DNA of 64,000 nucleotides from an uncultured Verrucomicrobiae bacterium (lineage in GTDB: Bacteria; Verrucomicrobiota; Verrucomicrobiia; Limisphaerales; UBA11358). The stretch's first letter is position 1; every line of letters begins with the position of its first letter. Of this stretch, positions 29,126-44,129 are shown one piece after another. The position numbers were made by a program, and so were the translations under genes. The stretch covers positions 194,433 to 258,432 of the forward strand of contig CAWHAH010000002.1 in NCBI GenBank assembly GCA_963827205.1, given 5' to 3'. Under the pieces are notes generated by a model that was not told the origin of the DNA, made no database searches, and saw only the letters and a list, made by a program, of their open reading frames with translations.

Positions 29126-29137
29126 AATGGAGTCACA

Positions 29138-29787: not shown

Positions 29788-30630
29788 TTAACGCTCAAAT
29801 TCAAACCGGCGGCCCACGCCGGGTGCGGCGCAGCGTCCGGGAAAACTTTCCCACAACCGCGCGACAGCCGCTGCGCCGGTGCAGTGCGCCGGCACGAGCA
29901 GCGGAATCTTCCGTTGTTGCAGCGCCTCGACCGTTGCGGCCAGCCGTTCCGGCGAAGCGTTAAGCAGGTGCAGGCCGCCCAGCACGGCGCGAACCGGCCG
30001 GCCGGGATGGAATCCCTGAATATAATCGAGCGTGTTGACCACGCCGGCATGGGCGCAACCCAGCAACACCACGACGCCGTCGGACGTGTCAAAAAACACC
30101 GCCTGATCGTCCCGCACCAGATCGGGCTGCGTGGCGCGTTCGTCCAGAAAGAAGCGTCCGCCCGGATCCTCGTAAGGTGTGTGGCGGGGAATTTCTCCAG
30201 TGACGAACAAGCCTTTGACCACCTCCGTGCAGGTTCGCGTTTCAATAATCCGCGCTTGATGGTGCATGAGAAAAGCGTGGCTGGCTTCGGGCAGACCGAT
30301 AAAACGCGGCGTGCCATCGGGTTGAAGGCTGAATTTCGGTTCCCGCGCCGCCGGGTGCAGGAAAACCGGAGGACACGACGAAGCTGCGACCACTGCCGCC
30401 AGACCGCCAGTGTGGTCGTAATGGCCGTGGCTCAAGACGATGGCGTCGAGCCGGTCCAGGCCAATGCCGAGCTGGCGGGCGTTTTCGACCAGCAAATTCG
30501 TCTGCCCGGTATCGAACAAGACCTGATGCGATCCGAATTGAATGTGCCAGGCCAGTCCGTGTTCGGCCTTGAGGCCGCGCTCGTGGACCGAATTTTCCAC
30601 CAGAACGGTGATGCTGATTTTTTGGCTCAT
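29788..30630 (-). CDS. MBL-fold metallo-hydrolase
   Basis: 280-aa ORF with HGHYDHTGG metal motif; N-terminus ITVLVEN..GLKAEHGLA is typical of the family found beside NifX-like genes. Confidence 0.8.
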   Translation of the reverse strand: MSQKISITVLVENSVHERGLKAEHGLAWHIQFGSHQVLFDTGQTNLLVENARQLGIGLDRLDAIVLSHGHYDHTGGLAAVVAASSCPPVFLHPAAREPKFSLQPDGTPRFIGLPEASHAFLMHHQARIIETRTCTEVVKGLFVTGEIPRHTPYEDPGGRFFLDERATQPDLVRDDQAVFFDTSDGVVVLLGCAHAGVVNTLDYIQGFHPGRPVRAVLGGLHLLNASPERLAATVEALQQRKIPLLVPAHCTGAAAVARLWESFPGRCAAPGVGRRFEFER

Positions 30631-31067
30631 GCGGGTTTCATGAATTTGCCGGTGGCACTCGCCTTGACCGTGCCGCCCTGCGAGAGTTTGGCGTGCAATT
30701 GAAACAGCCCTTGAGAGTCATCCTCCACCCAAGCCCGCAGCAGCGACTCTTCAGCAGCGACAACGCCGGCATGGTAACGGACTTTTAATTCTACGGTCAA
30801 ACCGCGAATTCCCCGCGCGAAGAGGCAGTTGGTCATTGCGCCGTCGAGCAACGCAGCAATCACGCCTCCGTGCAGTAAACCCGGATACCCCTCCAGCGCG
30901 CAGTGGCCAAGAAAATTTGCGCTCACGCTGCCGTCCGGCTGTGGCGTGTAGCGCAGCGCCAGCCCCATCGGATTCGACCCGCTGCACACAAAACAAAACG
31001 GATGCGCCTCCGCTTGCATGTTTTGGAAGCGGGTTTGAATGCTGTCGGGTGCAGGCGAGTTCGTCAT
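30627..31067 (-). CDS. PaaI-family (hotdog) thioesterase
   Basis: CFVCSGSNPMGLAL and LHGGVIAALLD motifs; ATG 31019 is an alternative start; 4-nt overlap with the MBL gene. Confidence 0.7.
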   Translation of the reverse strand: MTNSPAPDSIQTRFQNMQAEAHPFCFVCSGSNPMGLALRYTPQPDGSVSANFLGHCALEGYPGLLHGGVIAALLDGAMTNCLFARGIRGLTVELKVRYHAGVVAAEESLLRAWVEDDSQGLFQLHAKLSQGGTVKASATGKFMKPA

Positions 31068-31078
31068 GGGGTTGAGCA

Positions 31079-31094
31079 AAGCAGCGGCAATGCC
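31079..31094 (-). promoter_or_regulatory. candidate sigma-54 promoter (TGGCAT-N5-CTGCT) for the thioesterase/MBL operon
   Basis: Minus strand reads TGGCATtgccgCTGCT with canonical GG-N10-GC spacing. It is divergent from the sigma-54 activator gene, and the shared 12-nt motif lies ~125 nt upstream. Confidence 0.5.
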
Positions 31095-31192
31095 ATCGGT
31101 GCAAAACCGTTGTTGCCCGTTGAAAACCCGCCATTTCGCACAAACTGCGGCATGGTTAAGCGTGCAAGACCCCACGATTTCCCCGACTGACC

Positions 31193-31204
31193 GTGGCAAA
31201 ATGC
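31193..31204. promoter_or_regulatory. candidate enhancer (UAS) site GTGGCAAAATGC, inside palindrome TGGCA-N3-TGCCA
   Basis: Exact 12-mer shared with 32949..32960, in the same orientation and at a similar distance relative to each sigma-54 promoter candidate. Confidence 0.45.
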
Positions 31205-31230
31205 CATTGCGAACCCGGCCCCGATGGCGG

Positions 31231-32586
31231 ATGATGGAATGGCGGATTCGCCTCCGCGCCCAAATGCAGGAAACGCTTCATAACCAGTTGCTCGATTCGG
31301 TGCCCGACGGTGTGTTCACCGTGGACGCCGATTGGCGCGTCACCTTTTTCAATCGCGCCGCCGAGCAGATCACCGGCATCCGCCAGCAAGAGGCGCTGGG
31401 CCGGCGCTGTTGTGGTGTGTTCCGCGCCTCCATCTGCGAAACCGCCTGCGCGTTGAAGCAAACGCTGGCCACCCGCCGGCCCGTGGCCAACAAGGTCGTC
31501 TATATTGTGAACGCGCGGGGCGAGCGCATCCCGATCAGCATCTCCACCGCCGCACTCACGGATGCGCGCGGCAAAACCATCGGCGGCGTGGAGAGTTTCC
31601 GCGACCTGCGATTGGTGAACGAACTGCGCCACGAAGCCGAGCAACAGGATTCGTTTTCGGACATCATCGGGCGCAGCGCAGCGATGCGGCAATTGTTTGA
31701 TCTGCTGCCGCCCGTGGCCGAGAGCGACAGCACGGTGCTCGTGGAAGGCCCCAGCGGCACGGGCAAGGAACTGTTTGCCCGGGCCATCCATCAGCTTTCG
31801 CGTCGGCACGCGAAGAAGTTCATCGCTCTCAACTGTGGCGCGCTGCCGGACACCTTGCTGGAAAGCGAATTGTTCGGCTACAAAGCCGGCGCGTTCACTG
31901 ACGCACGCAAGGACAAACCTGGCCGCTTCGCGCTGGCCGAGGGCGGAACCATCTTTCTGGACGAAATCGGCGACATCTCGCCGGCCATGCAAACACGGTT
32001 GTTACGCGTATTGCAGGAGCGCGTTTATGAACCGCTCGGCGGCGTGGAAACCCTGCGCTGCAACGTGCGGGTGATCGCCGCATCGAACAAGCCGCTCCAG
32101 GAGCTGGTGAAGGAGGGAAAGTTTCGTGAAGACCTGTTTTATCGCGTGCATGTGGTCCGGCTGGAACTGCCGCCGCTGCGCGAGCGCCGCGAGGATATCC
32201 CCCTGTTGGTTGACCACTTCGTAGCACGATACAACCGCCTCAAGGGACGGGACGTTGCCGGTGTGTCCGATGCCGCCCTCGCGCGGCTGATGGAACATGA
32301 TTTTCCCGGCAATATTCGCGAACTGGAGAACATCATCGAACACGCCTTCGTGCTCTGTCGCAGCGGCCTGATTGAGTTGTCGCACCTGCCGCCGCATCTG
32401 CGCGGCGCGGAAGACGAAGTCCGCTCCGGGCTGCCGTCCGGCCTGACGCTGGTGGCGATGGAAAAGCTGCTCATCCGCGACGCATTGCGGCGGCACGAAG
32501 GAAATCGTGCCGCTGCCGCCCGCGAACTGGGCATTGACGTGAGCACGCTGTTTCGGAAAATCAAGGCGCTGAAATTAAAAGGCTGA
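31231..32586 (+). CDS. sigma-54-dependent Fis-family transcriptional activator with N-terminal PAS domain
   Basis: PAS (VPDGVFTVDADWRVTFFNRAAEQITG), AAA+ Walker A GPSGTGKE, GAFTDA loop, C-terminal HTH AAARELGIDVSTLFRKI. Start is ambiguous (31201, 31231 or 31264). Confidence 0.85.
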   Translation: MMEWRIRLRAQMQETLHNQLLDSVPDGVFTVDADWRVTFFNRAAEQITGIRQQEALGRRCCGVFRASICETACALKQTLATRRPVANKVVYIVNARGERIPISISTAALTDARGKTIGGVESFRDLRLVNELRHEAEQQDSFSDIIGRSAAMRQLFDLLPPVAESDSTVLVEGPSGTGKELFARAIHQLSRRHAKKFIALNCGALPDTLLESELFGYKAGAFTDARKDKPGRFALAEGGTIFLDEIGDISPAMQTRLLRVLQERVYEPLGGVETLRCNVRVIAASNKPLQELVKEGKFREDLFYRVHVVRLELPPLRERREDIPLLVDHFVARYNRLKGRDVAGVSDAALARLMEHDFPGNIRELENIIEHAFVLCRSGLIELSHLPPHLRGAEDEVRSGLPSGLTLVAMEKLLIRDALRRHEGNRAAAARELGIDVSTLFRKIKALKLKG

Positions 32587-32613
32587 AAGCCCAAAAGATG
32601 ATAACATAGAACC

Positions 32614-32889
32614 ATGCTGAACGAGCACGACCAGGATCTTCTTCTGCGTTGCCGCCGCCTCGGCCACGAGGTGACTTTCGGCTATTGCCCGCGAGAAACA
32701 GGCGGAAAGCCCTGCCGCCTGATTCTGGACTGCTGGTGGGAACAATTTGACGTGCGCTCCTTCCTGCAGGCGCATCTGTCGAAGGAGGACATGGCCCAAG
32801 TCGAGCGCCGCCAGCGCCTCTCCCCCTCCCAGCAAGATGTTGAGCCTGGTGGAGATAATCCAGCAGGCAAAGGATCGGCTGAAGCGTAA
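32614..32889 (+). CDS. small Cys-containing hypothetical protein
   Basis: 91-aa ORF 27 nt after the activator stop; Cys pattern C-x12-C-x9-C-x6-C followed by WW; no family recognised. Confidence 0.45.
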   Translation: MLNEHDQDLLLRCRRLGHEVTFGYCPRETGGKPCRLILDCWWEQFDVRSFLQAHLSKEDMAQVERRQRLSPSQQDVEPGGDNPAGKGSAEA

Positions 32890-32948
32890 ACCATGACACT
32901 CCCCCCGGCGGTGACGCAGATTGCGCTGGATCGCTCCCGTTACCCGTT

Positions 32949-32960
32949 GCATTTTGCCAC
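32949..32960. promoter_or_regulatory. candidate enhancer (UAS) site GCATTTTGCCAC
   Basis: Exact reverse complement of 31193..31204; ~120 nt upstream of the predicted start of the 33049 promoter candidate. Confidence 0.45.
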
Positions 32961-33048
32961 TAAGCACACTCTCTCTGCTTGGATCAATAATTACAGTCCC
33001 CCCTGATTTCAAAGGAAATTTCGATTTGTCTGCCAGCCAATTGGGGGC

Positions 33049-33064
33049 TGGCATGAATCCCGCA
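33049..33064 (+). promoter_or_regulatory. candidate sigma-54 promoter (TGGCAT-N5-CCGCA) for the NifX-like/def/radical-SAM operon
   Basis: GG-N10-GC spacing is correct but the -12 box is weak, and the predicted start falls within 1-2 nt of GTG 33076. Overlaps palindrome TGCCAGCC-N7-GGCTGGCA. Confidence 0.4.
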
Positions 33065-33075
33065 CTACGGCAAGT

Positions 33076-33504
33076 GTGCTGATTGCCATTCCCGTTTTGC
33101 AGGAACGCATTTCGCCGGTGCTCGACGCTGCGGCGCGGTTGCTTTTGGTTACCCACCGGCGCGGGAAGGAAGTGGCGCGGCGCGAATTTGTTCTTGGTCC
33201 GCTTACGCCGGAAGGACTGGCGCGGAGCGTAGCGGAATTGCGCGTGGATGTGCTGCTCTGCGCCGCACTGTCCAAACAGTTGCTGCGGGCTTTGGAACGG
33301 CGCGGCGTGCGGGTCAAACCGCATCTCTGCGGCGAGGTGGAGTCGGTCTTGCGCGCCTTCGACTGCGGCCATCTCCAGCGGGATGAATTCCGCATGCCGG
33401 GCTGCTGGGGACAACATTCGCACGGCAAATACTGCCGTCATCAGCGTGTTGCTCAGAACGGTAAGCCCAGTGGGAAAGAAACACGAACCCAAATTTCGGC
33501 ATGA
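33076..33504 (+). CDS. NifB/NifX-family (dinitrogenase FeMo-cofactor-binding fold) protein 1
   Basis: 142-aa ORF, GTG start. The (M)LIAIPV N-terminus and VDVLLCAALS match the family; Cys/His-rich C-terminus. Confidence 0.7.
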   Translation: MLIAIPVLQERISPVLDAAARLLLVTHRRGKEVARREFVLGPLTPEGLARSVAELRVDVLLCAALSKQLLRALERRGVRVKPHLCGEVESVLRAFDCGHLQRDEFRMPGCWGQHSHGKYCRHQRVAQNGKPSGKETRTQISA

Positions 33505-33707
33505 CAGCATCACCATCAAATCATCGGCCTGCTGGAAAGCGCAAGGTTCGCAGCGGCAAACGCCACCGGTTCCAAATCACCGGATTGCCCGGCTGGAAAC
33601 GCGCGCAACTGGGTGGGCCCGCGTTTGGCGAAGCAAACTGCAATCTTCCTCCGAAATCACGGAACGCCGAACTCCGGCCCGGCGCGAATGTGTCCGTTGA
33701 ACCATGA
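33501..33707 (+). CDS. small basic hypothetical protein (68 aa)
   Basis: ATGA overlaps with both neighbours (33501-33504 and 33704-33707) argue for translation; pI clearly basic (K/R-rich). Confidence 0.5.
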   Translation: MTASPSNHRPAGKRKVRSGKRHRFQITGLPGWKRAQLGGPAFGEANCNLPPKSRNAELRPGANVSVEP

Positions 33708-34306
33708 ACTCGCCCCAGCCCAACCTCACTTCCAAAGCGGACCCGCCGTCCGAAGGCCGCATATCCCGGCACCGGCTGCATCCGTTGACCCTTGTGCATT
33801 ACCCGGACCCGATGTTGCGGAAGGAGTGCGTGCCGGTGGAACGGTTCGACAGCACGCTGCGGGACATCGCGGACGAGATGACTGCGCTAATGCAGTCCCA
33901 TTCCGGAATCGGCCTGGCCGCGCCGCAGGTTGGACTCGAACAACGGCTGCTGGTGTGCGGCATCGAAACCCAGCTCATTGCCCTGGCCAACGTGCAGATT
34001 CAAGAAGGCACCCAGACGGGGGAATTCGTGGAAGGCTGTCTAAGCCTGCCCGGCATCAAGGTCAACGTCTGGCGTCCGGAGCGCATCCGCGTGAGCGGTT
34101 ATGACGTTCAGGGGCACCGGAGGAGCTTCGCCGCAACCGGCCTGTGGGCGCGGGTGATTCAACACGAACTGGATCACTTGAACGGCGTGCTGATTTGTGA
34201 TTATGGGCATCCGTTGGCCGAAGGCTGCGGGGAATGCCCGCTCACGTTGCCAGCGGTGCTGTTGGAAGAGCGCAAGCACCGGTCACGCCCCTCCCGTTCA
34301 CATTAA
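33704..34306 (+). CDS. def: peptide deformylase paralog with N- and Cys-containing C-terminal extensions
   Basis: All three catalytic motifs are present: GIGLAAPQ, EGCLS, QHELDH. Confidence 0.85.
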   Translation: MNSPQPNLTSKADPPSEGRISRHRLHPLTLVHYPDPMLRKECVPVERFDSTLRDIADEMTALMQSHSGIGLAAPQVGLEQRLLVCGIETQLIALANVQIQEGTQTGEFVEGCLSLPGIKVNVWRPERIRVSGYDVQGHRRSFAATGLWARVIQHELDHLNGVLICDYGHPLAEGCGECPLTLPAVLLEERKHRSRPSRSH

Positions 34307-34316
34307 CGCAACTGCT

Positions 34317-34961
34317 ATGACCAATTCACAAATCGAGAGCCGCCGAAACCATCGCTTGATGAAACAGCGCGAGGCGTTGTTCCGACGCTTCGGCTACGAT
34401 TCGGTGGCAAGCCGCAAGTTCGTTCTTAAGAAAGTCATGCCGTTGCCTGGGCACGTGCTCGAAATCGGCACCGGCAAAGGCCGCTTTCTCGCCGTGCTGG
34501 CGAAGCACGCGGATCGTATCACGACGTTGGACGCGGACGCGAAACAGCAACGCGCGGCAAAGCTGCACATCCGTCAGACGCGGGCTGGCCACCGGATTCG
34601 ATTTATCGTCCATGATGCCGAACATCTGCCTTGGCCTGACGCCAGTTTCGACACCGTGGTCACTGTGAACACTTTTCATCATCTGGCGCGCCCGATGCGG
34701 GTGTTCAAGGAGATGTTGCGGGTGTTAAAGCCGGGCGGGAAACTTGTCTTGAGCGATTTTTCTCCGCGCGGCTTTCAAATTTTCGACAGGATTCACCAAT
34801 TTGAAGGCGGAACGCATCCCCGCCTGAAAAATGGTTTGGCTGGGTTCGCGCACCGGCTTGGCCGGCCCGGCTGGAAAACCAGACGATTTAAAGGATGCAA
34901 TCAAGAGATTCTGGTGGCGACGGCGCCACCCGTCCCAACGAAAGGCAAAAAGCACACATGA
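34317..34961 (+). CDS. class I SAM-dependent methyltransferase (Methyltransf_11 type)
   Basis: 214 aa from ATG 34317; VLEIGTGKGRF motif I and LKPGGKLVLSDF. Confidence 0.8.
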   Translation: MTNSQIESRRNHRLMKQREALFRRFGYDSVASRKFVLKKVMPLPGHVLEIGTGKGRFLAVLAKHADRITTLDADAKQQRAAKLHIRQTRAGHRIRFIVHDAEHLPWPDASFDTVVTVNTFHHLARPMRVFKEMLRVLKPGGKLVLSDFSPRGFQIFDRIHQFEGGTHPRLKNGLAGFAHRLGRPGWKTRRFKGCNQEILVATAPPVPTKGKKHT

Positions 34962-35395
34962 TTACCATCGCAATTCCCTCAGCCGAAGGCCGGCTTCACG
35001 GACACTTTGGCGGCTGCCGGGAATTCACGCTCGTGCAAGCGGACCCCGAGCACCGAACAATTGTCAGCATCCGGCCAGTGACACCGCCGCCGCACGCGCC
35101 GGGACTTTTCCCGCGCTGGCTGCGCGAGCAGGGCGCGAACGTTATTATTGTGGGTGGCATTGGCCAGCGTGCGCTGGCCATCTTCGCCCAGGAAGGCATC
35201 GAGGTTCGCGCCGGACTTCCAGACGCGCCGGTGGAACAGTTGGCAACCGCTTATTTGAACGGCCAGTTGACCGCGACGCCGGAAGGCTGCGAACACCACG
35301 GCCATCGGCACGACCATGAGCATGGTCATCATCACCATCGCGAGCATGATCACGACCATGAAGGTTGTGACCACGGAGCCGAAACGGGGCATTGA
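34958..35395 (+). CDS. NifB/NifX-family protein 2 with His-rich C-terminal tail
   Basis: MITIAIPSAEGRLHGHFGGC and ANVIIVGGIGQRA match the family; tail EGCEHHGHRHDHEHGHHHHREHDHDHEGCDHG; ATGA overlap with the upstream gene. Confidence 0.8.
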   Translation: MITIAIPSAEGRLHGHFGGCREFTLVQADPEHRTIVSIRPVTPPPHAPGLFPRWLREQGANVIIVGGIGQRALAIFAQEGIEVRAGLPDAPVEQLATAYLNGQLTATPEGCEHHGHRHDHEHGHHHHREHDHDHEGCDHGAETGH

Positions 35396-35398
35396 GCG

Positions 35399-36292
35399 AT
35401 GAAAAGCGCCTTGGATTGCCTGCCTTGTTTCGTGTCGCAAGGACTGAACGTCGCGCGCATGGCGACTTCGGACCCGCGCGTTCAGGAACAGATTCTGCGC
35501 GAAGTGCTGCGCCGCGCCAGTCAGTCGGATTTGGCCAAGTCGCCGCCGCTGTTTGGCCGGAGCCTTCACCAGTGGGTGCGCGAGCTTGCGGGCCAGGCAG
35601 ATCCGTATTTGGCCGTCAAACAGGAATCAAACCGGCTCGCGCTGGCGCTGTTGCCCGCCTGGCGCGAGCGGCTGCGGACGGCGGAAAACCCGCGCCAGAC
35701 CGCCGTGAAAATGGCCATTGCCAGCAACGTCATTGACTATGGCATCAAGGGCGATCTTACGGCGGAAATAATTCCCGCTGCGCTGGAAAGGTCTTTTGCC
35801 GGGCCGTTCATGGGCGACGTGGACGGATTTTTCGCGGCGGCGGAGCGCGCGACCGAGATTCTTTTTCTGGCGGACAACGCGGGGGAACTGGTCTTTGACC
35901 GGCTACTCCTCGAATTGCTGCCGCGCGAAAAAATCACCGTCGTGGTCAAAGGCGGCCCGGCCATCAACGACGCCTTGCGCGCGGACGCCACGGTGGCCGG
36001 CCTCGACGGCTGGGTGGCGGTGACGGACACCGGCTGCGACGGCGCGGGCATTGAGCTGGCAGCGTGCAGCCCGGAGTTTCAGCGGCGGTTTGCGCGGGCC
36101 GATCTGATCATCGCCAAGGGACAGGCGAATTTCGAGTCGCTGGACGGCTGTGGGCAAAACATTTTTTTCATGTTCAAGGTCAAGTGTTCCGTCGTGGCCC
36201 GGCATATCGGCCACGCGGTCGGGAGCCTGGTCTTGCACCGCAATGTTCCCGAGGCGGCGGAACTGGTCCTCGCCAAAACAACAAAAGCTTGA
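35399..36292 (+). CDS. DUF89-family protein (damage-control phosphatase ARMT1-like)
   Basis: 297-aa ORF; CLPCF N-terminus, LADNAGELVFD metal motif, IAKGQANFESL. Confidence 0.8.
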   Translation: MKSALDCLPCFVSQGLNVARMATSDPRVQEQILREVLRRASQSDLAKSPPLFGRSLHQWVRELAGQADPYLAVKQESNRLALALLPAWRERLRTAENPRQTAVKMAIASNVIDYGIKGDLTAEIIPAALERSFAGPFMGDVDGFFAAAERATEILFLADNAGELVFDRLLLELLPREKITVVVKGGPAINDALRADATVAGLDGWVAVTDTGCDGAGIELAACSPEFQRRFARADLIIAKGQANFESLDGCGQNIFFMFKVKCSVVARHIGHAVGSLVLHRNVPEAAELVLAKTTKA

Positions 36293-36318
36293 GCCATAAA
36301 CAGGCAACGAATGACACC

Positions 36319-36729
36319 ATGAAAAAGAATCAACCAACAAATGCTGCCTCTACTACCGACGGCCTGAATCTCGTCGCCCAAGCATGGGAGAACCGCGAAG
36401 GACCGGCGGTATTCGCGACCGTGGACGCGGCGAAAACGCCCAACGCCATTTACGTCGGCGAAATCCGCCACGTTCCCGGCGAAGGGTTCATTGTGGCGGA
36501 CAATTATTTCTGCAAAACCCGCGCCAACATCAAGAGCGGGACAAAAGGCGCCGTTTTGTTGCTGACGAAGGACCGGAAGTCGTTTCAGGTGAAAGGTCCG
36601 CTGACCTATCACACTCAAGGCCCCGTCTTCGATAACATGCGGTCTTGGCATCATTCGAAACTTCCAGGCGCGGCGGCGACGCTCCTGCGGGTTGAAGAGG
36701 TTTACAGCGGCGCAGAAAAATTGTATTGA
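36319..36729 (+). CDS. pyridoxamine 5-phosphate oxidase-like FMN-binding split-barrel protein
   Basis: 136 aa from ATG 36319; pattern AVFATVDAAKTPNAIYV...FCKTRANIKSGTKGAVLL fits the PNPOx-like fold (by eye). Confidence 0.6.
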   Translation: MKKNQPTNAASTTDGLNLVAQAWENREGPAVFATVDAAKTPNAIYVGEIRHVPGEGFIVADNYFCKTRANIKSGTKGAVLLLTKDRKSFQVKGPLTYHTQGPVFDNMRSWHHSKLPGAAATLLRVEEVYSGAEKLY

Positions 36730-37742
36730 TGCATTCGACATCCCAACCGCGCGGCCATGTTTTCGGCCCGGTGCCCTCCCGCCGCCTCGGGCGTTCGCTG
36801 GGCGTGGACCTGGTGCCGCTCAAGACCTGCACCTTCGATTGTATTTACTGCCAGTTGGGCCGTACGACGAAAAAAACCGTTGAACGCAAGGAATGGACGC
36901 CGACGAACGCGGTGCTGGATGAGTTGAAACGCAAGCTCGCCTGCCGGCCGGACTACATCACCTTAAGCGGCTCGGGTGAACCGACACTGCACTCGGGCCT
37001 CGGCGACATCATCGAGCATATCCAGGCCTTGACGGACGTGCCGGTGGCGGTATTGACAAACGGGTCGCTGCTGTGGCAGCCGCAGGTGCGCGCCGAACTG
37101 GCCCTGGCCGACGTGGTTCTGCCCTCGCTCGATGCCGGCGATGCCTTCAAATTCGAGTTCATCAACCGGCCGCACGCCAGTCTTTCGTTTGACCAGGTGG
37201 TCGGGGGCTTGGTCGCGTTCCGACGCGAATTCCCGGGGCAGTATTGGCTGGAAGTGTTCCTCTTGGCGGGTTGCACAGCCATCCTCGCCGACGTGGATCG
37301 CATCGCCGCGTTGGTCAAAAAAATCAGGCCTGACCGCGTGCAACTGAACACCGTCGCGCGTCCGCCAGCGGAGGAATTTGCCCTGAGCGTGGCGCCGGCG
37401 GAACTGGCCCGTTGGGCGCGCCGGTTCTCTCCTCGCGCCGAAGTGGTGGCCGAGCGGCCCTCGCGGCTGGCCCACAAGTCGCGGACGCTGGACGCGCGCA
37501 CCGTGCTCGACCTGCTATTGCGGCGTCCCTGCACCGCCGAGGACATCGCGCGGGGCTTGGGCGCGAACCGGCTGGAGATTCTCAAGCGGCTGGAGGCGCT
37601 CGTTGCGCGAGGCGCACTCGAAATATCCCGCCATGAAGGTGAAATTTATTATCGCGCCAGTGCGATCCCATCCGGTCATCCACCGGAGGGTTCATTCCGC
37701 TGCTCGAAGAAACGAACAACCAAACAAAAGAATCATGAATAA
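36729..37742 (+). CDS. radical SAM protein (COG0731-like) with C-terminal winged-helix-like region
   Basis: GPVPSRRLGRSLGVDL then CTFDCIYC (CxxxCxxC); its ATG shares one nt with the upstream TGA. Confidence 0.85.
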   Translation: MHSTSQPRGHVFGPVPSRRLGRSLGVDLVPLKTCTFDCIYCQLGRTTKKTVERKEWTPTNAVLDELKRKLACRPDYITLSGSGEPTLHSGLGDIIEHIQALTDVPVAVLTNGSLLWQPQVRAELALADVVLPSLDAGDAFKFEFINRPHASLSFDQVVGGLVAFRREFPGQYWLEVFLLAGCTAILADVDRIAALVKKIRPDRVQLNTVARPPAEEFALSVAPAELARWARRFSPRAEVVAERPSRLAHKSRTLDARTVLDLLLRRPCTAEDIARGLGANRLEILKRLEALVARGALEISRHEGEIYYRASAIPSGHPPEGSFRCSKKRTTKQKNHE

Positions 37743-38154
37743 AGACAAATTGATCCAAGGATTAAACCAAGATCTCGCTGCCGAACTCGGCACCGTCATC
37801 CGTTACACCTATCAAGCCGCTAAATGCTACGGCCTGTTGGCGGCGGAATTGCGCGAACTGCTGGCGAAGGAAGCACAGGACGAACTGGGCCATGCCGCCT
37901 TTCTGATGGACGTCATTCAAGACCTGGGCGGCGAACCTGCCACCACGCCAAAGCCGTTCGAGAAGCCCGCCGACCTCAAAGGAATGCTCGAACTGGACGT
38001 GAAGATGGAGGCGGAGGACGTGGCCAACTATCTGGCGCACGCCAAACTGGCGGAACAGCTCAACCTTCCCGAACTCAAGATGAAGCTGGAAGAGATGGCC
38101 GCCGACGAGGCGGGTCATGGCCGCGAGCTGCGCCGACTCGTGAAAGGACTCTAA
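37735..38154 (+). CDS. ferritin-like (bacterioferritin/Dps-fold) di-iron protein
   Basis: 139 aa from ATG 37735; two ExxH motifs (QDELGHA, ADEAGHG); 8-nt overlap with the radical SAM gene. Confidence 0.7.
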   Translation: MNKDKLIQGLNQDLAAELGTVIRYTYQAAKCYGLLAAELRELLAKEAQDELGHAAFLMDVIQDLGGEPATTPKPFEKPADLKGMLELDVKMEAEDVANYLAHAKLAEQLNLPELKMKLEEMAADEAGHGRELRRLVKGL

Positions 38155-38158
38155 AGAC

Positions 38159-38686
38159 ATGAACAGTGGAGACAAACCTCTAGCCGGCCAGCGCATTGGC
38201 ATGTTCGGCCGCGGTGAACACAGCGACACCCTCCGGCAGAAAGACTATTTCAAGAAAAACAGGTTTGACCGCGACCTGCTCGCCCAACTGCCGCCGGGCA
38301 ACTTCACCGTCGCCGTGCGCGGCGCTCCGGTGCTCAATGGCGCCACGCTGGCGGACGCCGAGTGGGCGGGTTTGGCCGGGTTTTGCGAGATCATCACCAA
38401 CGGCTCGGACGCGCCGGGCACGCTGCTCGGAGATTGTTCACCGGAATTTCGCGCGCGGTTTGCGGCGGCGGACGTGGTCATTGCCAAGGGCCAGGTGAAT
38501 TACGAATCGCTGGCCGGCGTCAACCAGAACATTTTCTTTCTGCTCAAGGTCAAATGCCCGGTAATCGCGGAGCGGTTGCAATGTCCGGTTGGTGGCCTTG
38601 TGTTACACCATTTATTGCCGACCACGCTGCTCGAAGAAAAGAAACGCCGGGCACAGGATTCAGGTTCAAAGAAAGGCAAGTTTTGA
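38159..38686 (+). CDS. truncated DUF89 paralog (C-terminal half only) with an unrelated 38-aa N-terminus
   Basis: Residues ~39-150 align by eye with the C-half of 35399..36292 (CSPEF.RRFA.AD..IAKGQ.N.ESL....QNIFF..KVKC.V). The N-terminus includes the 66-bp repeat. May be a pseudogene. Confidence 0.5.
   Translation: MNSGDKPLAGQRIGMFGRGEHSDTLRQKDYFKKNRFDRDLLAQLPPGNFTVAVRGAPVLNGATLADAEWAGLAGFCEIITNGSDAPGTLLGDCSPEFRARFAAADVVIAKGQVNYESLAGVNQNIFFLLKVKCPVIAERLQCPVGGLVLHHLLPTTLLEEKKRRAQDSGSKKGKF
38207..38272 (+). repeat. 66-bp direct repeat, copy 1
   Basis: ggccgcggtgaacacagcgacaccctccggcagaaagactatttcaagaaaaacaggtttgaccgc; 64/66 identical to 40990..41055. Confidence 0.9.
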
Positions 38687-38732: not shown

Positions 38733-40448
38733 ATGAAGCCCACTCGCATTCTCATCATCGGCGGCGTGGCCGCCGGCGCCAAGGCAGCGGCCCGCGCCCG
38801 ACGCCGCGACCCGCACGCGGACATCACCCTCGTCGAACGGGGACGGCTGTTGTCCTACGCCGGTTGCGGCATGCCCTATTATATCCAAGGCCAAGTCCAC
38901 GATTTTCACGAACTCATGTCCACGCCCGTGGGCGTGATCCGCGACGGGACGTTCTTCCAGAACGTGAAAGCCATCCGCGTGCTCAACCAGACGCTCGCGG
39001 AGAAGATTGATCGCGCCGGCAAAACGCTCAACACCGTCAATGTTGCCACCGGCGAAAAGACCGATCTGCCCTACGACAAACTCGTGCTGGCCACGGGCGG
39101 CATTCCGGTCGAACCGCGCATGGAAGGCGCGGACCTCAATCGCGTGTTTCGCCTGAATTCGCCCGACGACGCGCTGGCGATTCGCGAGGCCACCGAGCAT
39201 GGCAATGTCAAACGGGCCGTGCTGATCGGCGGCGGGTTGATCGGTTTGGAAACCGCCGAGGCGTTTGTCGCCCGCGGCATTCAAGTCACCATCGTCGAGA
39301 TGTTGGACCAATTGCTGCCTGCCTTGCTGGACTGGGAAGTGGCGGCGTTCCTGGAAAAGTATCTGCGCGGACGCGGCCTTGACATCCGGCTCGGCCAGAA
39401 GGTTACGCGGCTGGAAGGCGATGCGGACGGCAACGTCGCGCGCGTGCAGGCCACGGCCGGCACAATCGAGGCGCAAATGGTGTTGATCGCCATCGGCGTC
39501 CGCCCGAACGTCCAGCTCGCCAAAGACGCCGGTCTGGCCCTCGGCACGACTGGCGCGATTGCCGTCAACGACCAGCTTCAGACGAGCGACCCGGACATTT
39601 ACGCTGGCGGCGACTGCGTGGAATGCACGCATTTGCTCACCGGGCAGAAGGTGTTCGTGCCGCTCGGCTCGACGGCCAACAAACATGGCCACGTCATCGG
39701 CGACAATATCACCGGCGGCCAGTCCCGTTTCCCCGGCATCCTCGGCACGACGGTGTTCAAGGTGCTCGATTACAATCTCGCGCGCACCGGCCTGACCGAA
39801 AAGCAAGCGCGTCAACTGGGTTACAATGCGCTGACCGCGCTGGTGCCTGGCCCCGACCGCGCCCACTACTATCCGACGGCGGCCACCTTGCTGGTGAAAC
39901 TTGTCGCCGACGCCGCCAACGGACGCTTGCTAGGTGCGCAGGCTCTTGGCCCCGGCGACGCGGTGAAACGCATTGATGTGTTGGCGACCGCGCTGACGTT
40001 CGGCGCAACGATTGATCACTTGCCGGACTTGGACCTCGGCTACGCCCCGCCATATTCGTCGGCCGTTGACCCGCTGGCTCATGCCGCCAACGTGTTGCGC
40101 AACAAACGCGACGGCTTGGCCAAGGCGCTCACGCCGCAAGAACTGAAAGCCAAACTCGACACTAACGCTCCCGTCGTGCTGCTGGATGTGCGCACGCCGC
40201 CGGAGCGCGACCAGGGGCAACTGCGCGACCCGCGCGTGGTCTGGATTCCGCTGGGCCAGTTGCGAAACCGGCTGGCCGAACTGCCGCGCGACAGGGAGAT
40301 CGTCTGTTTCTGCAAAGTCAGCCAGCGCGGTTACGAAGCGCAGCGGGTGCTGGATGGCGAAGGATTTGCCAACGCCAAGTTTCTCGATGGCGGCCTGGTC
40401 GCATGGCCGTATCCGCTTCAAGCCGGCAACCACAAAGAAAGGCAGTGA
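38733..40448 (+). CDS. CoA-disulfide reductase-type FAD oxidoreductase fused to a C-terminal rhodanese domain (persulfide-reductase type)
   Basis: 571 aa from ATG 38733. GGVAAGAKAA FAD motif, single active Cys in SYAGCGMPY, second Rossmann GGGLIGLE, rhodanese loop CKVSQR. Confidence 0.85.
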   Translation: MKPTRILIIGGVAAGAKAAARARRRDPHADITLVERGRLLSYAGCGMPYYIQGQVHDFHELMSTPVGVIRDGTFFQNVKAIRVLNQTLAEKIDRAGKTLNTVNVATGEKTDLPYDKLVLATGGIPVEPRMEGADLNRVFRLNSPDDALAIREATEHGNVKRAVLIGGGLIGLETAEAFVARGIQVTIVEMLDQLLPALLDWEVAAFLEKYLRGRGLDIRLGQKVTRLEGDADGNVARVQATAGTIEAQMVLIAIGVRPNVQLAKDAGLALGTTGAIAVNDQLQTSDPDIYAGGDCVECTHLLTGQKVFVPLGSTANKHGHVIGDNITGGQSRFPGILGTTVFKVLDYNLARTGLTEKQARQLGYNALTALVPGPDRAHYYPTAATLLVKLVADAANGRLLGAQALGPGDAVKRIDVLATALTFGATIDHLPDLDLGYAPPYSSAVDPLAHAANVLRNKRDGLAKALTPQELKAKLDTNAPVVLLDVRTPPERDQGQLRDPRVVWIPLGQLRNRLAELPRDREIVCFCKVSQRGYEAQRVLDGEGFANAKFLDGGLVAWPYPLQAGNHKERQ

Positions 40449-40451
40449 GTT

Positions 40452-40913
40452 ATGGGAGAATACAGCCTCTCTACACTCGTGGAATTGCCCTTCGAGCGGG
40501 CACTCCGCGAAACGCGCCAGGCATTGGAACAGGAAGGTTTCGTCCTCATCACTGAAATTGATCTACAAGCGCAGTTGGCGGTGAAATTGAACCGGCAGAT
40601 TCGTCCCTACACCATCCTGGGCGTGTGGGTGCCCGCGTGGGAATACGAGGCATTGAGTCGCGAACCGGACATCGGGCTGCTCATGCCCAGCCACGTCTGC
40701 CTGTGGGACAACGGAGATGGCACTTGCACGTTGGCCACCGCCGACCTCAAACACCTGTGCCACACGGAAAAGAACCCGCCTCTGGCCGAAGCCGCCCGCG
40801 CCGTCAACGCCCGGCTGCGGGCAGTCGTGGCTTCGGTGCAGTTTGCCCGGACGACGGACACGCCCCAGCCGTCTTCGCCCGCTGAACGTTCGGACACCGA
40901 ATACAACAAATGA
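40452..40913 (+). CDS. DUF302-domain protein
   Basis: 153-aa ORF; FVLITEIDLQA...YTILGVW...LLMPSHVCLW matches the DUF302 pattern. Confidence 0.75.
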   Translation: MGEYSLSTLVELPFERALRETRQALEQEGFVLITEIDLQAQLAVKLNRQIRPYTILGVWVPAWEYEALSREPDIGLLMPSHVCLWDNGDGTCTLATADLKHLCHTEKNPPLAEAARAVNARLRAVVASVQFARTTDTPQPSSPAERSDTEYNK

Positions 40914-43745: not shown

Positions 43746-44129
43746 ATGACTTCCCCAAATACGCTCATCGAAGTCACCGACAGTTCATTTGATGAACAGG
43801 TCATTCAATCCAAGACACCGGTTTTCCTGGCGTTTTGCGCCGACGGCTGTCCCGCCAGCCAAAGGCTTTTGGCGATGTTGGCGAGTGCGGTTCCGCGTTG
43901 CCGTGGCTTGGTAACATTTGCGAAAGCCAGCCCCGCCAAAGCTCCCGGACTGGGCGCCCAACTCGGTGTCGCGTCAGCCCCCAGCCTCCTGTTATTGCGT
44001 GGTGGCGCAGTCAGTTTCCAATTTGTCGGCGATTTGTCCCCGCGCGAGTTGGACGATTTGCTGGCTCACGCCGCTGGAGAAAATTTCATGAACCATAACC
44101 ATGCTATAACTGCCAAGCCATGCTCCTGA
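43746..44129 (+). CDS. thioredoxin-fold protein with atypical CxxxC site
   Basis: PVFLAFCADGCPAS replaces WCGPC; C-terminal LLLLRGG..FVG is Trx-like. Confidence 0.55.
   Translation: MTSPNTLIEVTDSSFDEQVIQSKTPVFLAFCADGCPASQRLLAMLASAVPRCRGLVTFAKASPAKAPGLGAQLGVASAPSLLLLRGGAVSFQFVGDLSPRELDDLLAHAAGENFMNHNHAITAKPCS

Follow-up and report, generated by a model that had tools for sequence, protein, structure and literature searches.

The 64 kb stretch of verrucomicrobial DNA analyzed here (the window) contains a gene cluster that is probably a reduced, verrucomicrobial form of the ORP ("orange protein") system known from anaerobes, apparently controlled by an OrpR-type sigma-54 activator. Given the combination of a presumed redox-sensing sigma-54 activator, two divergent operons, and NifX-fold carriers accompanied by changeable helper enzymes, the cluster is a variant of a known gene system and not a wholly new pathway. 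An earlier note on this DNA was aware of no characterized pathway with this combination of families, yet Desulfovibrio vulgaris has a matching regulator and NifX-fold core in its OrpR/ORP system (PMC8359166; PMC6345978). The window retains the activator, one NifX1-type protein, a remnant of a DUF5320 protein and two NifX2-type proteins; the MinD-ferredoxin ATPases, Mrp and the orange protein itself are absent from it. Because these defining proteins of the ORP complex are missing, the label "ORP system" is used here for the regulator and for the carrier fold alone. Our best reading is that the cluster would constitute a regulon switched on at low redox potential, which supplies Fe-S or metal-sulfide carriers together with oxygen-sensitive helper enzymes.

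Gene content and coupling

All the genes listed in the earlier note are in place, with identities from profile searches against Pfam and NCBIfam where these gave a match. The features of the region are the following.

29788..30630, minus strand: MBL-fold hydrolase of the TM1679/COG1237 type, gene 2 of the divergent operon (Pfam Lactamase_B)
30627..31067, minus strand: hotdog-fold (4HBT) thioesterase, gene 1 of the divergent operon (Pfam 4HBT)
31080..31095, minus strand: predicted sigma-54 -24/-12 promoter TGGCATTGCCGCTGCT of the 4HBT-MBL operon (PSSM)
31194..31206, no strand assigned: putative activator-binding palindrome (UAS) TGGCAAAATGCCA (match to the TKGCANNNTGCMA motif)
31231..32586, plus strand: OrpR-type sigma-54 enhancer-binding protein (Pfam/NCBIfam PAS, Sigma54_activat and HTH_8)
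32614..32889, plus strand: small 4-Cys protein (C-x12-C-x9-C-x4-C), no Pfam/NCBIfam family match
32947..32959, no strand assigned: putative activator-binding palindrome (UAS) TTGCATTTTGCCA (match to the TKGCANNNTGCMA motif)
33049..33064, plus strand: predicted sigma-54 -24/-12 promoter TGGCATGAATCCCGCA (second-best PSSM match in the window)
33076..33504, plus strand: NifX1-type carrier, first gene of the plus-strand operon (PF02579 weak, E 8e-4, below the Pfam cut-off)
33501..33707, plus strand: truncated DUF5320-like basic protein, the "68-aa basic protein" of the earlier note (HMM built from DUF5320 neighbors; pI 11.8)
33704..34306, plus strand: peptide deformylase with a Cys-rich C-terminal extension (TIGR00079, 134 bits, cut-off 104)
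34317..34961, plus strand: class I SAM methyltransferase (Pfam Methyltransf_11; no specific family reached)
34958..35395, plus strand: NifX2-type carrier with a His-rich tail of 19 His (PF02579, E 1e-18)
35399..36292, plus strand: DUF89/ARMT1-type metal-dependent phosphatase (PF01937, 202 bits; DNAGE metal motif present)
36319..36729, plus strand: PNPOx-like FMN-binding split-barrel protein (PF01243, E 1e-6)
36729..37742, plus strand: radical SAM enzyme of an uncharacterized COG0731-like family (CX3CX2C at C35/C39/C42, CTFDCIYC)
37735..38154, plus strand: ferritin-like four-helix-bundle protein (PF00210, E 5e-18)
38159..38686, plus strand: C-terminal half of a second DUF89 gene, a fragment (PF01937 profile positions 189-309 only)
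38733..40448, plus strand: CoA-disulfide/persulfide reductase-type flavoprotein fused to a rhodanese domain, CoADR-rhodanese (profile searches)
40452..40913, plus strand: DUF302 protein (profile search)
42283..42777, plus strand: TrmO/TsaA-like SAM-binding protein (PF01980, E 1.5e-39)
44120..44542, plus strand: NifX3, a second NifX2-type carrier (…GCDH…; PF02579, E 6e-11)

The ATGA or other short overlaps that the earlier note described at 33501, 33704, 34958, 36729 and 37735 are directly visible in the sequence. Because the gaps between genes are tiny or negative and no credible terminator was found between 33076 and 40913, transcription of the plus-strand array as a single unit is plausible. 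The co-directional array also holds three thioredoxins, rhodanese proteins and TauE, and genes for a rhodanese and for an ECF sigma factor are located upstream.

Several of the assigned proteins retain the expected functional residues, namely all the deformylase motifs (GIGLAAPQ, EGCLS, HELDH) and the di-iron ligands of the ferritin-like protein (E / ExxH / E / ExxH). The DUF89 protein scores 154 bits against the NCBIfam damage-control phosphatase, under the cut-off of 440, and the MBL protein matches the structures 3H3E (E 5e-33) and 2P4Z (E 1e-31). Traces of rearrangement are seen downstream, where the 5' end of the fragmentary second DUF89 gene is formed by a 66-nt repeat and a 29-codon fragment of a second TrmO/TsaA-like copy is present at 40910-40996; DNA repeats D3 and D5 are common to the NifX3 and NifX2 genes.

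The activator and the predicted promoters and binding sites

The PAS domain of the activator contains the cysteines C60-x8-C69-x3-C73 plus C61; an HTH_8 domain and an AAA+ domain carrying a GAFTDA loop are also present. The C-x8-C-x3-C triad is invariant in 15 of 15 PAS-bearing homologs, nine of which also share the GAFTDA loop. The published features of OrpR are C52/C61/C65, D/E54 and GAFTDA (PMC8359166; table in PMC4641369), and an Fe-S cluster has been demonstrated in this protein (PMC8359166). The regulator of the window shares with OrpR the cysteine spacing in the PAS domain, the GAFTDA loop, a site between divergent operons, and the GCA-TTT-TGC core of the binding site. Unlike the OrpR homologs, all of which have Asp or Glu at position C+2 when a PAS domain is present, the window activator alone carries Gly there. 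Judging by these published signature features, the activator is a putative ortholog of OrpR (DVU2106).

The proposal of sigma-54 control made in the earlier note finds support in conserved -24/-12 promoters and putative activator-binding palindromes. The two top sigma-54 PSSM matches in the 64 kb flank the activator gene. The highest, TGGCATTGCCGCTGCT, which was itself in the training set, is conserved at -25/-26 in two other loci (L004 and L006), and the start codon of the thioesterase is 2 nt past the inferred transcription start (~31069). The predicted start of the TGGCATGAATCCCGCA promoter (~33075) is 1 nt ahead of the GTG of NifX1 at 33076, a spacing that suggests a leaderless arrangement; of 24 loci, 18 have a TGGCA[CT]-N5-..GC. 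match 5' of the NifX1 homolog, 12 of these matches lying at -27/-28.

The TKGCA-N3-TGCMA palindrome (TKGCANNNTGCMA) has only two matches in the 64 kb, each some 120-130 nt upstream of one of the two promoters. TGGCAAAATGCCA precedes the minus-strand transcription start by ~130 nt and is just 5' of the activator start codon, and TTGCATTTTGCCA lies at -129 from the NifX1 start, an equal position (-128/-129) being observed in the relatives L086 and L100; a weaker site, GACGCAGATTGCGC, lies upstream of it (~32917-32930). Both palindromes have the GCA-TTT-TGC core in common with the OrpR box, GGGCGYRTTTTGCGCCC (PMC8359166), and TTGCA-N3-TGCAA sites are found in many phyla. A motif scan of the 64 kb window, which was not exhaustive, detected no RpoN box, no nifH-like P-loop motif and no second deformylase; an rpoN gene was likewise not found in the window.

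The data show the gene identities, the promoter and UAS motifs with their conservation, the signature residues of the regulator and the synteny across phyla, whereas sensing by an Fe-S cluster, the direction of the redox control, the cargo of the carriers and whatever substrate the radical SAM enzyme has are inferred. The mechanism would run as follows. Cys60/69/73 of the PAS domain, perhaps together with Cys61, would bind a redox-labile [4Fe-4S] cluster. When the redox potential is low, the activator, positioned at 31194-31206 and 32947-32959, would remodel sigma-54 RNA polymerase at the two divergent promoters (31095-31080 and 33049-33064), yielding two essentially leaderless transcripts. 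The minus-strand transcript would encode the thioesterase and the MBL hydrolase, and the plus-strand transcript NifX1, the DUF5320 remnant, deformylase, methyltransferase, NifX2, DUF89, the PNPOx-like protein, the radical SAM enzyme and the ferritin-like protein, probably extending into the CoADR-rhodanese and DUF302 genes.

Putative NifX-fold carriers and related clusters

NifX1 is a divergent member of the NifX fold and has a basic tail (pI 10.2) as well as a C-terminal MPGC[CW] motif that is kept across phyla in this subfamily. NifX2 ends in G-x-L...C-[DE]-H and matches the MrpORP C-terminal domain (E 4e-29); in the PDB it matches TM1290 and TM1816, and the orange protein 2WFB only at E 1.4e-3. 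The 33501..33707 ORF occupies the place that DUF5320 has in canonical clusters. An HMM built from the DUF5320 neighbors in 19 loci, a family confirmed as PF17253, was run against 6587 ORFs and ranked this ORF first among those of the window (E 1.6e-4; motif RHRFQITGLPGWKRA). The suggestion of the earlier note that NifX-fold proteins serve outside nitrogen fixation is counted as supported. Their relatives Orp8, the MrpORP C-terminal domain and IssA carry or store anionic Fe-S or metal-sulfide species. By likeness to these proteins, the NifX-fold proteins of the window probably do the same, and the strongly basic NifX1 and 68-aa protein resemble the cationic tail with which IssA binds thioferrate (PMC5524996).

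Related clusters span more than eight phyla, with a core (activator, NifX-fold proteins, DUF5320, MinD-ferredoxin ATPases and Mrp-NifX) that corresponds to the Desulfovibrio ORP system. Mrp-NifX fusions are present in related loci, and one of these (L072) encodes a true orange-protein ortholog (E 1.7e-20 against 2WFB). The 4HBT-MBL pair is conserved as well, divergent from the activator in Verrucomicrobia and in the order NifX2-4HBT-MBL in Planctomycetes. Among 35 radical-SAM-anchored loci that extend 5 kb or more in either direction, NifX genes are present in 25 (within 10 kb of the radical SAM gene), MBL in 17, MinD-ferredoxin and DUF5320 in 16 each, and the activator in 14. The 33 activator-anchored metagenome loci, each of at least 8 kb, contain NifX in 29 cases, MinD-ferredoxin in 14, the radical SAM enzyme in three, PNPOx in two, and DUF89 and deformylase in one each.

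In tblastn searches of 85 loci, homologs near the radical SAM gene were found for the MBL protein in 33, the TrmO/TsaA-like protein in 21, CoADR-rhodanese in 16 and deformylase in seven (L004, L006, L007, L063 and L084, distinct from the window, and the near-identical contigs L001/L002). The PNPOx-like gene recurs in the vicinity of the radical SAM gene (8-9 loci), and by tblastn the ferritin-like gene is found there only in near-identical contigs; the methyltransferase-NifX2 pair is kept in L004 and L006.

Accessory enzymes and alternative readings

The radical SAM, DUF89, deformylase, methyltransferase, PNPOx-like and MBL/thioesterase genes recur in a shuffled order. A single linear pathway is unlikely because the first five of these are facultative and gene order is reshuffled between close relatives (L088, L090, L099, L103). 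These genes would instead form an accessory set that varies by lineage and consists of metal-, thiol- and flavin-dependent enzymes that are co-expressed under reducing conditions and are not steps of one fixed pathway. The main idea of the earlier note, a dedicated pathway for one undescribed cofactor or metallocluster, in which the radical SAM enzyme acts on a NifX-held cluster by analogy with NifB/NifX and the methyltransferase, DUF89, PNPOx-like and MBL proteins perform further steps, is accordingly improbable, although it fares best among the alternatives. It is favored by the NifX genes near the radical SAM gene, the tight coupling in the window, the placement of the radical SAM gene between MinD-ferredoxin genes (gaps of 3-6 nt in L049, +4/-4 nt in L080), its fusion to an IscU/NifU-like domain in L081, and the presence of NifB (7JMB, 7BI7) among the structural neighbors. 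However, the fold search yielded only generic radical SAM matches (TM ~0.4), and the only invariant cysteines are C35, C39, C42 and C269, the latter in a C-terminal winged-helix domain, with no SPASM, twitch or conserved auxiliary-cluster cysteines. Moreover, NifX is missing from many radical SAM loci, and the radical SAM, DUF89, deformylase and PNPOx genes are rare in activator-anchored clusters.

Somewhat less likely still is a regulon for sulfide or sulfane-sulfur (persulfide) stress, in which the PAS cysteines would sense polysulfide via S-bridged crosslinks and the operon would detoxify or traffic reactive sulfur. FisR, a sigma-54 activator whose cysteines detect sulfane sulfur, provides a precedent (PMC8469610), and the many sulfur-handling genes downstream (CoADR-rhodanese, DUF302, thioredoxins, rhodanese proteins and TauE in one co-directional array) would fit such a response equally well. 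The rhodanese and ECF sigma factor genes upstream and the recurrence of CoADR-rhodanese near the radical SAM gene also speak for it. Against this, OrpR, an Fe-S protein (PMC8359166), has matching cysteine spacing, GAFTDA loop and UAS core, it is NifX and MinD-ferredoxin genes and not sqr or pdo that accompany the activator most constantly, no sqr gene was seen, the MBL protein is of the TM1679/COG1237 type without a match to ETHE1/PDO, and the sulfur genes lie beyond the rearrangement scar and may use other promoters.

Very doubtful is a RiPP-like modification of the small Cys-rich protein or another small peptide by the co-occurring radical SAM enzyme, methyltransferase and N-terminal deformylase; the earlier note had allowed for modification of a small protein. 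The conserved 4-Cys ORF that adjoins the cluster is an unlikely substrate because it starts 27 nt past the activator gene, in the transcription unit of the activator and 5' of the UAS and the sigma-54 promoter, and is rare: homologs are present in five of the 82 other radical-SAM-anchored loci clustered (L003, L004, L006, L007, L015), the same five being returned by tblastn. In addition, the extra domain of the radical SAM enzyme is a helix-helix-helix-hairpin winged helix and not an RRE, and a protease and an exporter are both absent. The C-terminus of the small ORF is frameshifted in the window, the conserved frame ending at 32895.

A fortuitous juxtaposition of unrelated, separately regulated genes, to which the differing accessory content of close relatives and the recent shuffling implied by the scar and gene fragments might point, can be set aside since the neighborhood comparison called for by the earlier note finds the gene set co-occurring in other genomes, the core and several accessories recurring across more than eight phyla, with genes joined by stop/start overlaps, an array free of terminators, and a conserved promoter and UAS.

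Gene content of the array and its predicted carrier proteins

By its gene content, regulator and predicted control elements, the locus appears to be a variant of the "orange protein" (ORP) system, found here in Verrucomicrobia without the ATPases, rich in accessory genes and with sigma-54 promoters of a leaderless type. ORP is conserved in anaerobes and its function has been unclear since 2011, with proposals of a role in cell division, in Fe-S delivery or with a Mo-Cu-S cluster. The earlier note had seen in the locus a candidate undescribed cofactor or metallo-sulfur system; that it is sigma-54 controlled, metal-sulfur related and not linked to nitrogenase stands, whereas the ORP/OrpR core, already known and with a function unresolved in the literature, had been missed. 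The genes are as follows.

Genes of the array and the adjoining divergent operon
29788-30630, minus strand: MBL-fold hydrolase (family HMM assignment)
30627-31067, minus strand: hotdog thioesterase, ATG at 31067 (family HMM assignment)
31231-32586, plus strand: sigma-54 activator with PAS (PF08448/PF00989), Sigma54_activat (PF00158) and HTH_8 (PF02954) domains
33076-33504, plus strand: NifX1, GTG start at 33076 (weak PF02579 match, E 8e-4)
33704-34306, plus strand: peptide deformylase (TIGR00079, 134 bits, cut-off 104)
34317-34961, plus strand: Methyltransf_11 enzyme (family HMM assignment)
34958-35395, plus strand: NifX2 with a 19-His tail, clearly NifX-like
35399-36292, plus strand: DUF89/ARMT1 protein (PF01937, 202 bits)
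36319-36729, plus strand: PNPOx-like protein (family HMM assignment)
36729-37742, plus strand: radical SAM enzyme (family HMM assignment)
37735-38154, plus strand: ferritin-like protein (family HMM assignment)
44120-44542, plus strand: NifX3, NifX-like

All the ORFs listed by the earlier note are present, and HMM searches left its family assignments in place. Direct reading of the sequence likewise showed the reported stop/start overlaps at 33501, 33704, 34958, 36729 and 37735, and the deformylase, which scores above the TIGR00079 cut-off, has the complete set of motifs claimed for it (GIGLAAPQ, EGCLS and HELDH). The array extends beyond 38154, where it had been taken to end, to about 50700, and encodes there a DUF89 C-terminal fragment, a CoADR-rhodanese fusion, DUF302, thioredoxins, an Asp racemase and a TrmO-like protein, followed by PSD-like and ThiM-like (kinase) proteins, a Fur-family regulator, Usp, a rhodanese membrane protein and TauE. 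A terminator scan, which gave fewer matches than shuffled controls, found no credible intrinsic terminator in 33076-40913. The DUF89 protein carries the metal-binding D-N-x-G-E motif (LADNAGELVFD) and scores 154 bits with the NCBIfam damage-control phosphatase equivalog, under the cut-off of 440. In a PDB sequence search the MBL protein matched only uncharacterised structural-genomics entries; a persulfide dioxygenase was ruled out, with no ETHE1/PDO match.

The three NifX-fold proteins belong to two types. Members of the NifX1 subfamily share a C-terminal MPGC[CW] motif and a basic tail, and in most loci their gene directly follows the promoter. NifX2 and NifX3 end in the pattern G-x-L…C-[DE]-H and match the C-terminal domain of MrpORP (E 4e-29 and 3e-20, respectively) as well as TM1290/TM1816; their common DNA segments are 74-79% identical, which indicates paralogy inside the array. 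The His tail of NifX2 is probably metal-binding, and its coding region (35299-35374) consists of imperfect tandem CAT/CAC-rich repeats. The 68-aa basic protein (orf68, 33501-33707), which had been listed as an ORF with no family, proved to be real and not an artefact, and can now be placed as a DUF5320-like remnant: it ranks first among window ORFs in a search with an HMM for the DUF5320 proteins of neighbouring genes (E 1.6e-4, 6587 ORFs searched), carries the motif RHRFQITGLPGWKRA and occupies the DUF5320 position of canonical clusters, with the N- and C-terminal parts of the family missing. Both NifX1 (pI 10.2) and orf68 (pI 11.8) are strongly basic.

An OrpR-type activator and its predicted promoters

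The activator consists of a PAS sensory domain, an AAA+ sigma-54 interaction domain and a C-terminal HTH, and its gene is flanked by a pair of divergent sigma-54 operons, in both of which a palindrome lies upstream of the promoter. The model for comparison is OrpR (DVU2106), the sigma-54 regulator of the orp operons in Desulfovibrio vulgaris Hildenborough described by Fievet et al. (PMC8359166, PMC3897727). The PAS cysteines of the activator, C60, C69 and C73, have the C-x8-C-x3-C spacing of C52, C61 and C65 in OrpR (PMC8359166) and are invariant in 15/15 aligned PAS-bearing homologues from several phyla. The sigma-54 contact loop, at 31888, reads GAFTDA, an unusual variant that is also given for DVU2106 (PMC4641369). 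Two residues after the first cysteine OrpR has a conserved Asp/Glu (position 54; PMC8359166), as do all 14 other homologues aligned (D or E), whereas the window activator has Gly62 (CCGVF) and an extra adjacent cysteine, Cys61, which might stand in for the acidic residue. Taken together, the published signature features and the gene context argue for an activator of the OrpR type. A near-identical strain, with proteins 98-99% identical, has a DDE transposase gene (L001, 163-1503) directly upstream of NifX1 in the place of the activator gene and the small Cys ORF, and keeps the -27 promoter.

A scan of the window with a generic sigma-54 consensus, allowing up to 2 mismatches, was uninformative (25 matches against 43 expected), and the promoters were found solely through comparative alignment. 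In the aligned upstream regions of NifX1 homologues, the element TGGCA[CT]-N5-(T/C)(T/C)GC(A/T) is present in 18 of 24 loci, and in 12 of the 24, from several phyla, it begins at position -27 or -28 relative to the NifX1 start codon; this spacing is less regular in loci anchored on the activator, for which the offsets are less reliable because start codons were taken from crude ORF queries. The NifX1 promoter of the window is predicted at 33049-33064 (plus strand); if its GC element is taken as -12, the transcription start would fall 1 nt ahead of the GTG (33076). The promoter of the divergent operon, 31095-31080 (minus strand), is conserved in two related loci (L004 and L006) and would set the transcription start 2 nt ahead of the ATG of the thioesterase gene (31067). 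These are the top two sites on both strands of the 64 kb with a PSSM built from the comparative sites, a ranking that speaks for their uniqueness and not for independent discovery, since the training set included both. With 11-12 nt between the end of each promoter and the start codon, the predicted mRNA leaders are 1-2 nt long; sigma-54 promoters in this position would, if confirmed, produce unusual leaderless transcripts. The D. vulgaris orp operons, in contrast, have reported Shine-Dalgarno sequences (PMC3897727).

Many loci have one or two TTGCA-N3-TGCAA palindromes upstream of the promoters. In the window, TKGCANNNTGCMA occurs exactly twice (31194-31206 and 32947-32959; 0.54 expected by chance), each copy about 120-130 nt upstream of one predicted transcription start; a close relative, L100, has its palindrome at -129 and promoter at -27, and in L086 the palindrome is at -128. 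In D. vulgaris the OrpR box GGGCGYRTTTTGCGCCC lies at about -88, with IHF sites between box and promoter (PMC8359166, PMC3897727). The two share the central GCA-TTT-TGC and the 3-nt spacer and differ in the arms, T(T/G)GCA in the window and GGGCGCA in D. vulgaris. The palindrome at 31194-31206 lies just before the start codon of the activator itself, a position that recalls the negative autoregulation described for orpR in D. vulgaris (PMC8359166, PMC3897727). The conserved -24/-12 elements and the upstream palindromes thus lend support to the sigma-54 control proposed at the outset.

Recurrence of the locus and its likeness to known systems

Verrucomicrobial clusters that closely resemble the one in the window (L001-L004) encode close homologues of the radical SAM enzyme. 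Scanning a single genome from each species yielded 80 loci anchored on the radical SAM gene, spanning Verrucomicrobiota, Planctomycetota, Spirochaetota, Thermodesulfobacteriota, other "Deltaproteobacteria", Bacteriovoracaceae, Anaerolineales, Eisenbacteria and others. Homologues of window proteins near the radical SAM gene were counted by tblastn in 85 such loci, and an independent sample of 33 loci of at least 8 kb was drawn from metagenome contigs anchored on the PAS domain of the activator.

Families encoded in radical-SAM-anchored loci (tblastn, of 85) and activator-anchored loci (of 33)
MBL: 33/85; 11/33
NifX2-type: 31/85
NifX1-type: 24/85
NifX: 29/33
MinD-ferredoxin: 14/33
TrmO: 21/85
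DUF89: 17/85; 1/33
Activator: 16/85
CoADR-rhodanese: 16/85
Thioesterase: 14/85; 10/33
Methyltransferase: 14/85; 8/33
PNPOx: 8/85; 2/33
Deformylase: 7/85; 1/33
Radical SAM: 3/33

Unbiased clustering of conserved ORFs, with conservation-weighted selection (longest-ORF-first selection picked antisense ORFs in high-GC DNA), revealed families that are present in related loci and absent from the window, with identities confirmed by Pfam. These include MinD/ParA ATPases with an inserted di-cluster ferredoxin domain (23 loci, mostly paired), DUF5320 (19 loci), NifU/IscU-like and RACo-like ASKHA proteins, FmdB zinc ribbons, Thi4, a 1-Cys peroxiredoxin and FMN-reductase/Isf-like proteins; Mrp/NBP35-NifX fusions came from the longest-ORF-first clustering. 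Of the 35 loci that extend at least 5 kb to either side of the radical SAM gene, 25 encode NifX, 17 MBL, 16 MinD-ferredoxin, 16 DUF5320 and 14 the activator. The accessory genes 3′ of the promoter vary even among the close relatives of the window.

Gene orders 3′ of the promoter in four close relatives
L088: NifX-MT-NifX-TrmO-NifX-Trx
L090: NifX-NifX-Trx-MT-PNPOx
L099: MT-TrmO-small Cys ORF-NifX-NifX-PDF
L103: NifX-NifX-DUF89-PNPOx-TrmO-Trx-NifX-Trx

Such variable gene content is easier to reconcile with a condition-specific regulon than with a fixed linear pathway. The radical SAM gene prefers an ORP context, yet most ORP clusters lack it.

In the orp locus of D. vulgaris, a PAS sigma-54 activator gene lies between divergent operons that encode NifX-fold "Di-Nase" proteins, paired MinD-ferredoxin ATPases and an Mrp-NifX fusion (PMC8359166, PMC6345978, PMC3897727). 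The window shares with it the NifX-fold (PF02579) proteins NifX1, NifX2 and NifX3 in divergent sigma-54 operons, a palindrome about 100 nt upstream of each promoter, and a predicted OrpR/sigma-54 promoter directly upstream of NifX1. The operons of the window lack Orp3/4 (MinD-ferredoxin), Orp8 (orange protein) and the Mrp domain of Orp9, and instead encode MBL, thioesterase, deformylase, methyltransferase, DUF89, PNPOx-like, radical SAM and ferritin-like proteins. For the MinD-ferredoxin and Mrp ATPases tblastn gave no match in the window, and the MrpORP profile matched NifX2 at positions 265-365 of 365 alone, its C-terminal domain. The best window match of the orange protein family (2WFB) is NifX2, at E 1.4e-3 not a close orthologue, whereas a 120-aa NifX-fold protein of the related locus L072 is a true orthologue of the Desulfovibrio gigas protein 2WFB (E 1.7e-20). 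Unlike MrpORP (Orp9), whose C-terminal Di-Nase domain binds an Fe-S cluster (PMC6345978), NifX2 and NifX3 stand alone, without the Mrp/NBP35 ATPase domain, and NifX2 has a long His-rich tail.

A second relevant system is IssA of Pyrococcus furiosus, a thioferrate Fe-S storage protein with an IPR003731 NifX-fold domain and a cationic tail, which is made when iron and sulfide are abundant and is controlled by SurR (PMC5524996). Related loci resemble it in their Gly/Arg-rich tails and common DUF5320 partners; in the window NifX1 likewise joins a NifX fold to a basic tail, which is short and neither Gly- nor aromatic-rich, and the predicted regulation is of the sigma-54/OrpR type instead of SurR. 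The encoding of a radical SAM enzyme together with NifX-fold carriers, and the presence of NifB among the structural neighbours of that enzyme, recall nitrogenase assembly by NifB/NifX/NafY. However, the window enzyme lacks the extra cluster ligands of NifB and has no NifX domain attached, NifX/NafY match the window proteins weakly (1P90, E 5e-3), and a motif scan of the window found no nifH-like motif or nitrogenase genes. Literature searches found no link among DUF5320/COG1433/PF02579, among COG0731/COG1237/COG1578, or between DUF89 and radical SAM.

The OrpR-type redox switch and its binding-site logic would reach far beyond sulfate reducers, to Verrucomicrobia, Planctomycetes, Anaerolineales and other phyla, and such a regulon can apparently occur without the ORP ATPases. 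It repeatedly recruits an uncharacterised radical SAM family, TM1679-type MBL, DUF89 and TrmO-like proteins, which are concrete, testable partners for the NifX-fold carriers and point to a wider "low-redox, iron/sulfide-rich" regulon with oxygen-labile enzymes such as the Fe(II) deformylase and sulfide-dependent Thi4.

The radical SAM enzyme and the possible function of the regulon

The radical SAM family is large and well conserved, with more than 8000 matches, and the best 120 matches listed are all at least 59% identical (an exact-sequence look-up of the window protein gave no match, and a 99%-identical homologue served as query). Its only invariant cysteines are C35, C39 and C42 of the SAM cluster and C269. 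An AlphaFold model (pLDDT 67.7) has a partial TIM barrel and a C-terminal three-helix/hairpin winged helix. Foldseek returned generic matches (LipA, viperin, Cfr, MiaB and NifB, TM about 0.4; NifB 0.43-0.47) and, with the model of moderate quality, structure yields no functional assignment. JGI names the family after TYW1 (COG0731, "wyosine synthetase"), and archaeal TYW1 2YX0 is the sole, weak PDB sequence match (E 1e-3); the TIGR03972 score of 29.5 bits against a cut-off of 318, the lack of the second-cluster cysteines, the winged helix and a context of ORP type rather than tRNA modification rule out TYW1. The NifB type was rejected for want of auxiliary Cys ligands and nif context and for the winged-helix rather than NifX-like C-terminus, and a SPASM maturase for want of SPASM cysteines.

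Under the mechanism we propose, for which the regulatory part rests largely on motifs and analogy, the OrpR-type activator would bind the two palindromes and, with a redox-sensitive [4Fe-4S] cluster in its PAS domain intact at low redox potential, turn on the two divergent, apparently leaderless sigma-54 transcripts. The NifX-fold proteins would carry or store anionic Fe-S or metal-sulfide species; as precedents, Orp8 binds a Mo-Cu-S cluster and IssA binds thioferrate via its cationic tail (PMC6345978, PMC5524996). The accessory proteins would be enzymes that need reduced metals, thiols or flavins, among them the Fe(II)-type deformylase, radical SAM, DUF89, PNPOx-like, ferritin-like, thioredoxin and CoADR-rhodanese proteins in the window and peroxiredoxin, Isf and sulfide-type Thi4 in other loci. 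Their usefulness would plausibly be limited to, or greatest in, reducing settings rich in iron and sulfide. A further step, which we regard as rather improbable, is that the radical SAM enzyme, the TM1679-type MBL, the thioesterase and DUF89 form an unrecognised enzymatic arm of ORP across anaerobic phyla, acting on the NifX-carried metal-sulfide and switched by the Fe-S sensor via leaderless sigma-54 transcripts. If so, this arm would build, modify or repair metal-sulfide species, as a non-nitrogenase analogue of NifB/NifX chemistry.

Among the alternatives, a dedicated cofactor pathway built around the radical SAM enzyme is still backed in part by the association of radical SAM and NifX genes and by a radical SAM-IscU fusion, and is weakened by the facultative, shuffled gene content. 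A FisR-like sulfane-sulfur sensor with a detoxification regulon (PMC8469610) would agree with the sulfur genes downstream in the array but does not fit the regulator, given its OrpR-like signatures and the genes most regularly found near it. RiPP-like modification of the small Cys ORF product (32614-32889), raised in the earlier note as modification of a small protein, is unlikely because this ORF lies upstream of the promoter, outside the sigma-54 operon, has homologues in only 5 of the 82 other radical SAM loci clustered, and is accompanied by a radical SAM enzyme devoid of SPASM/RRE features. Chance juxtaposition of the genes, which that note had proposed to check through gene neighbourhoods, is excluded by the synteny data, the gene set recurring in other genomes.

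The fusion (L081 9992-11383, Anaerolineales) joins a radical SAM homologue to a C-terminal NifU/IscU-like domain, and stand-alone NifU_N proteins are encoded in 8 related loci. MinD-ferredoxin genes flank the radical SAM gene on both sides in L049 (gaps of 3-6 nt) and in L080 (+4/-4 nt). A Thi4-family thiazole synthase gene adjoins the radical SAM gene in 8 loci (L017, L030, L048, L051, L059, L062, L066 and L081); in 5 loci a Thiamine_BP (PF01910) protein is encoded beside the methyltransferase, followed by a RACo-like or MinD-ferredoxin gene; and the array of the window includes a ThiM-like hydroxyethylthiazole kinase (44615-45427). These occurrences suggest a recurrent thiamine/thiazole link. 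A RACo-like gene (2Fe-2S ferredoxin and ASKHA ATPase; PF14574/PF17651) lies immediately 3′ of the radical SAM gene in L024, L029, L058, L064, L065, L069 and L073, which are planctomycete loci (mostly Phycisphaerae) and one from Hydrogenedentota, most without NifX genes nearby; this pairing is a second, distinct conserved context of the family.

Several features of the window sequence deserve mention. The C-terminus of the small Cys ORF (32614-32895) is out of frame relative to its homologues in L004, L006 and L007, and the conserved ending LSLVE(M/I)IQQAK can be read in a different frame, which stops with a TGA (32893-32895); the frame changes within a C-rich run near 32815-32825, and either a sequencing error or a genuine frameshift could account for this. 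Direct repeats of 66 nt (38207-38272 and 40990-41055, 97% identical, the sole copies in the window) bracket a 2.8-kb block with the C-terminal half of DUF89, CoADR-rhodanese, DUF302 and a TrmO-like gene cut off after its first 29 codons. The array also has complete DUF89 and TrmO-like genes in other places, L004 has DUF89-CoADR-DUF302-TrmO intact in the same order, and the block looks like a rearrangement or duplication scar. Just upstream of the MBL gene, 27661-29737 encodes an ECF sigma factor and a zf-HC2 anti-sigma factor (the pair at 27661-28742), a rhodanese and a TehB-like methyltransferase; L004 keeps this order, with one extra short-chain dehydrogenase gene between rhodanese and methyltransferase, and the region is a possible second regulatory layer for sulfur genes. 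Finally, a 28-nt motif, CTTGTAACTTTTC…GGCTC, occurs in three intergenic regions (45969-45996, 47305-47332 and 50734-50761), 40-70 nt upstream of plus-strand genes for a small membrane ORF (46011), Usp (47375) and a PagL-like protein (50782), and could be a shared promoter or operator.
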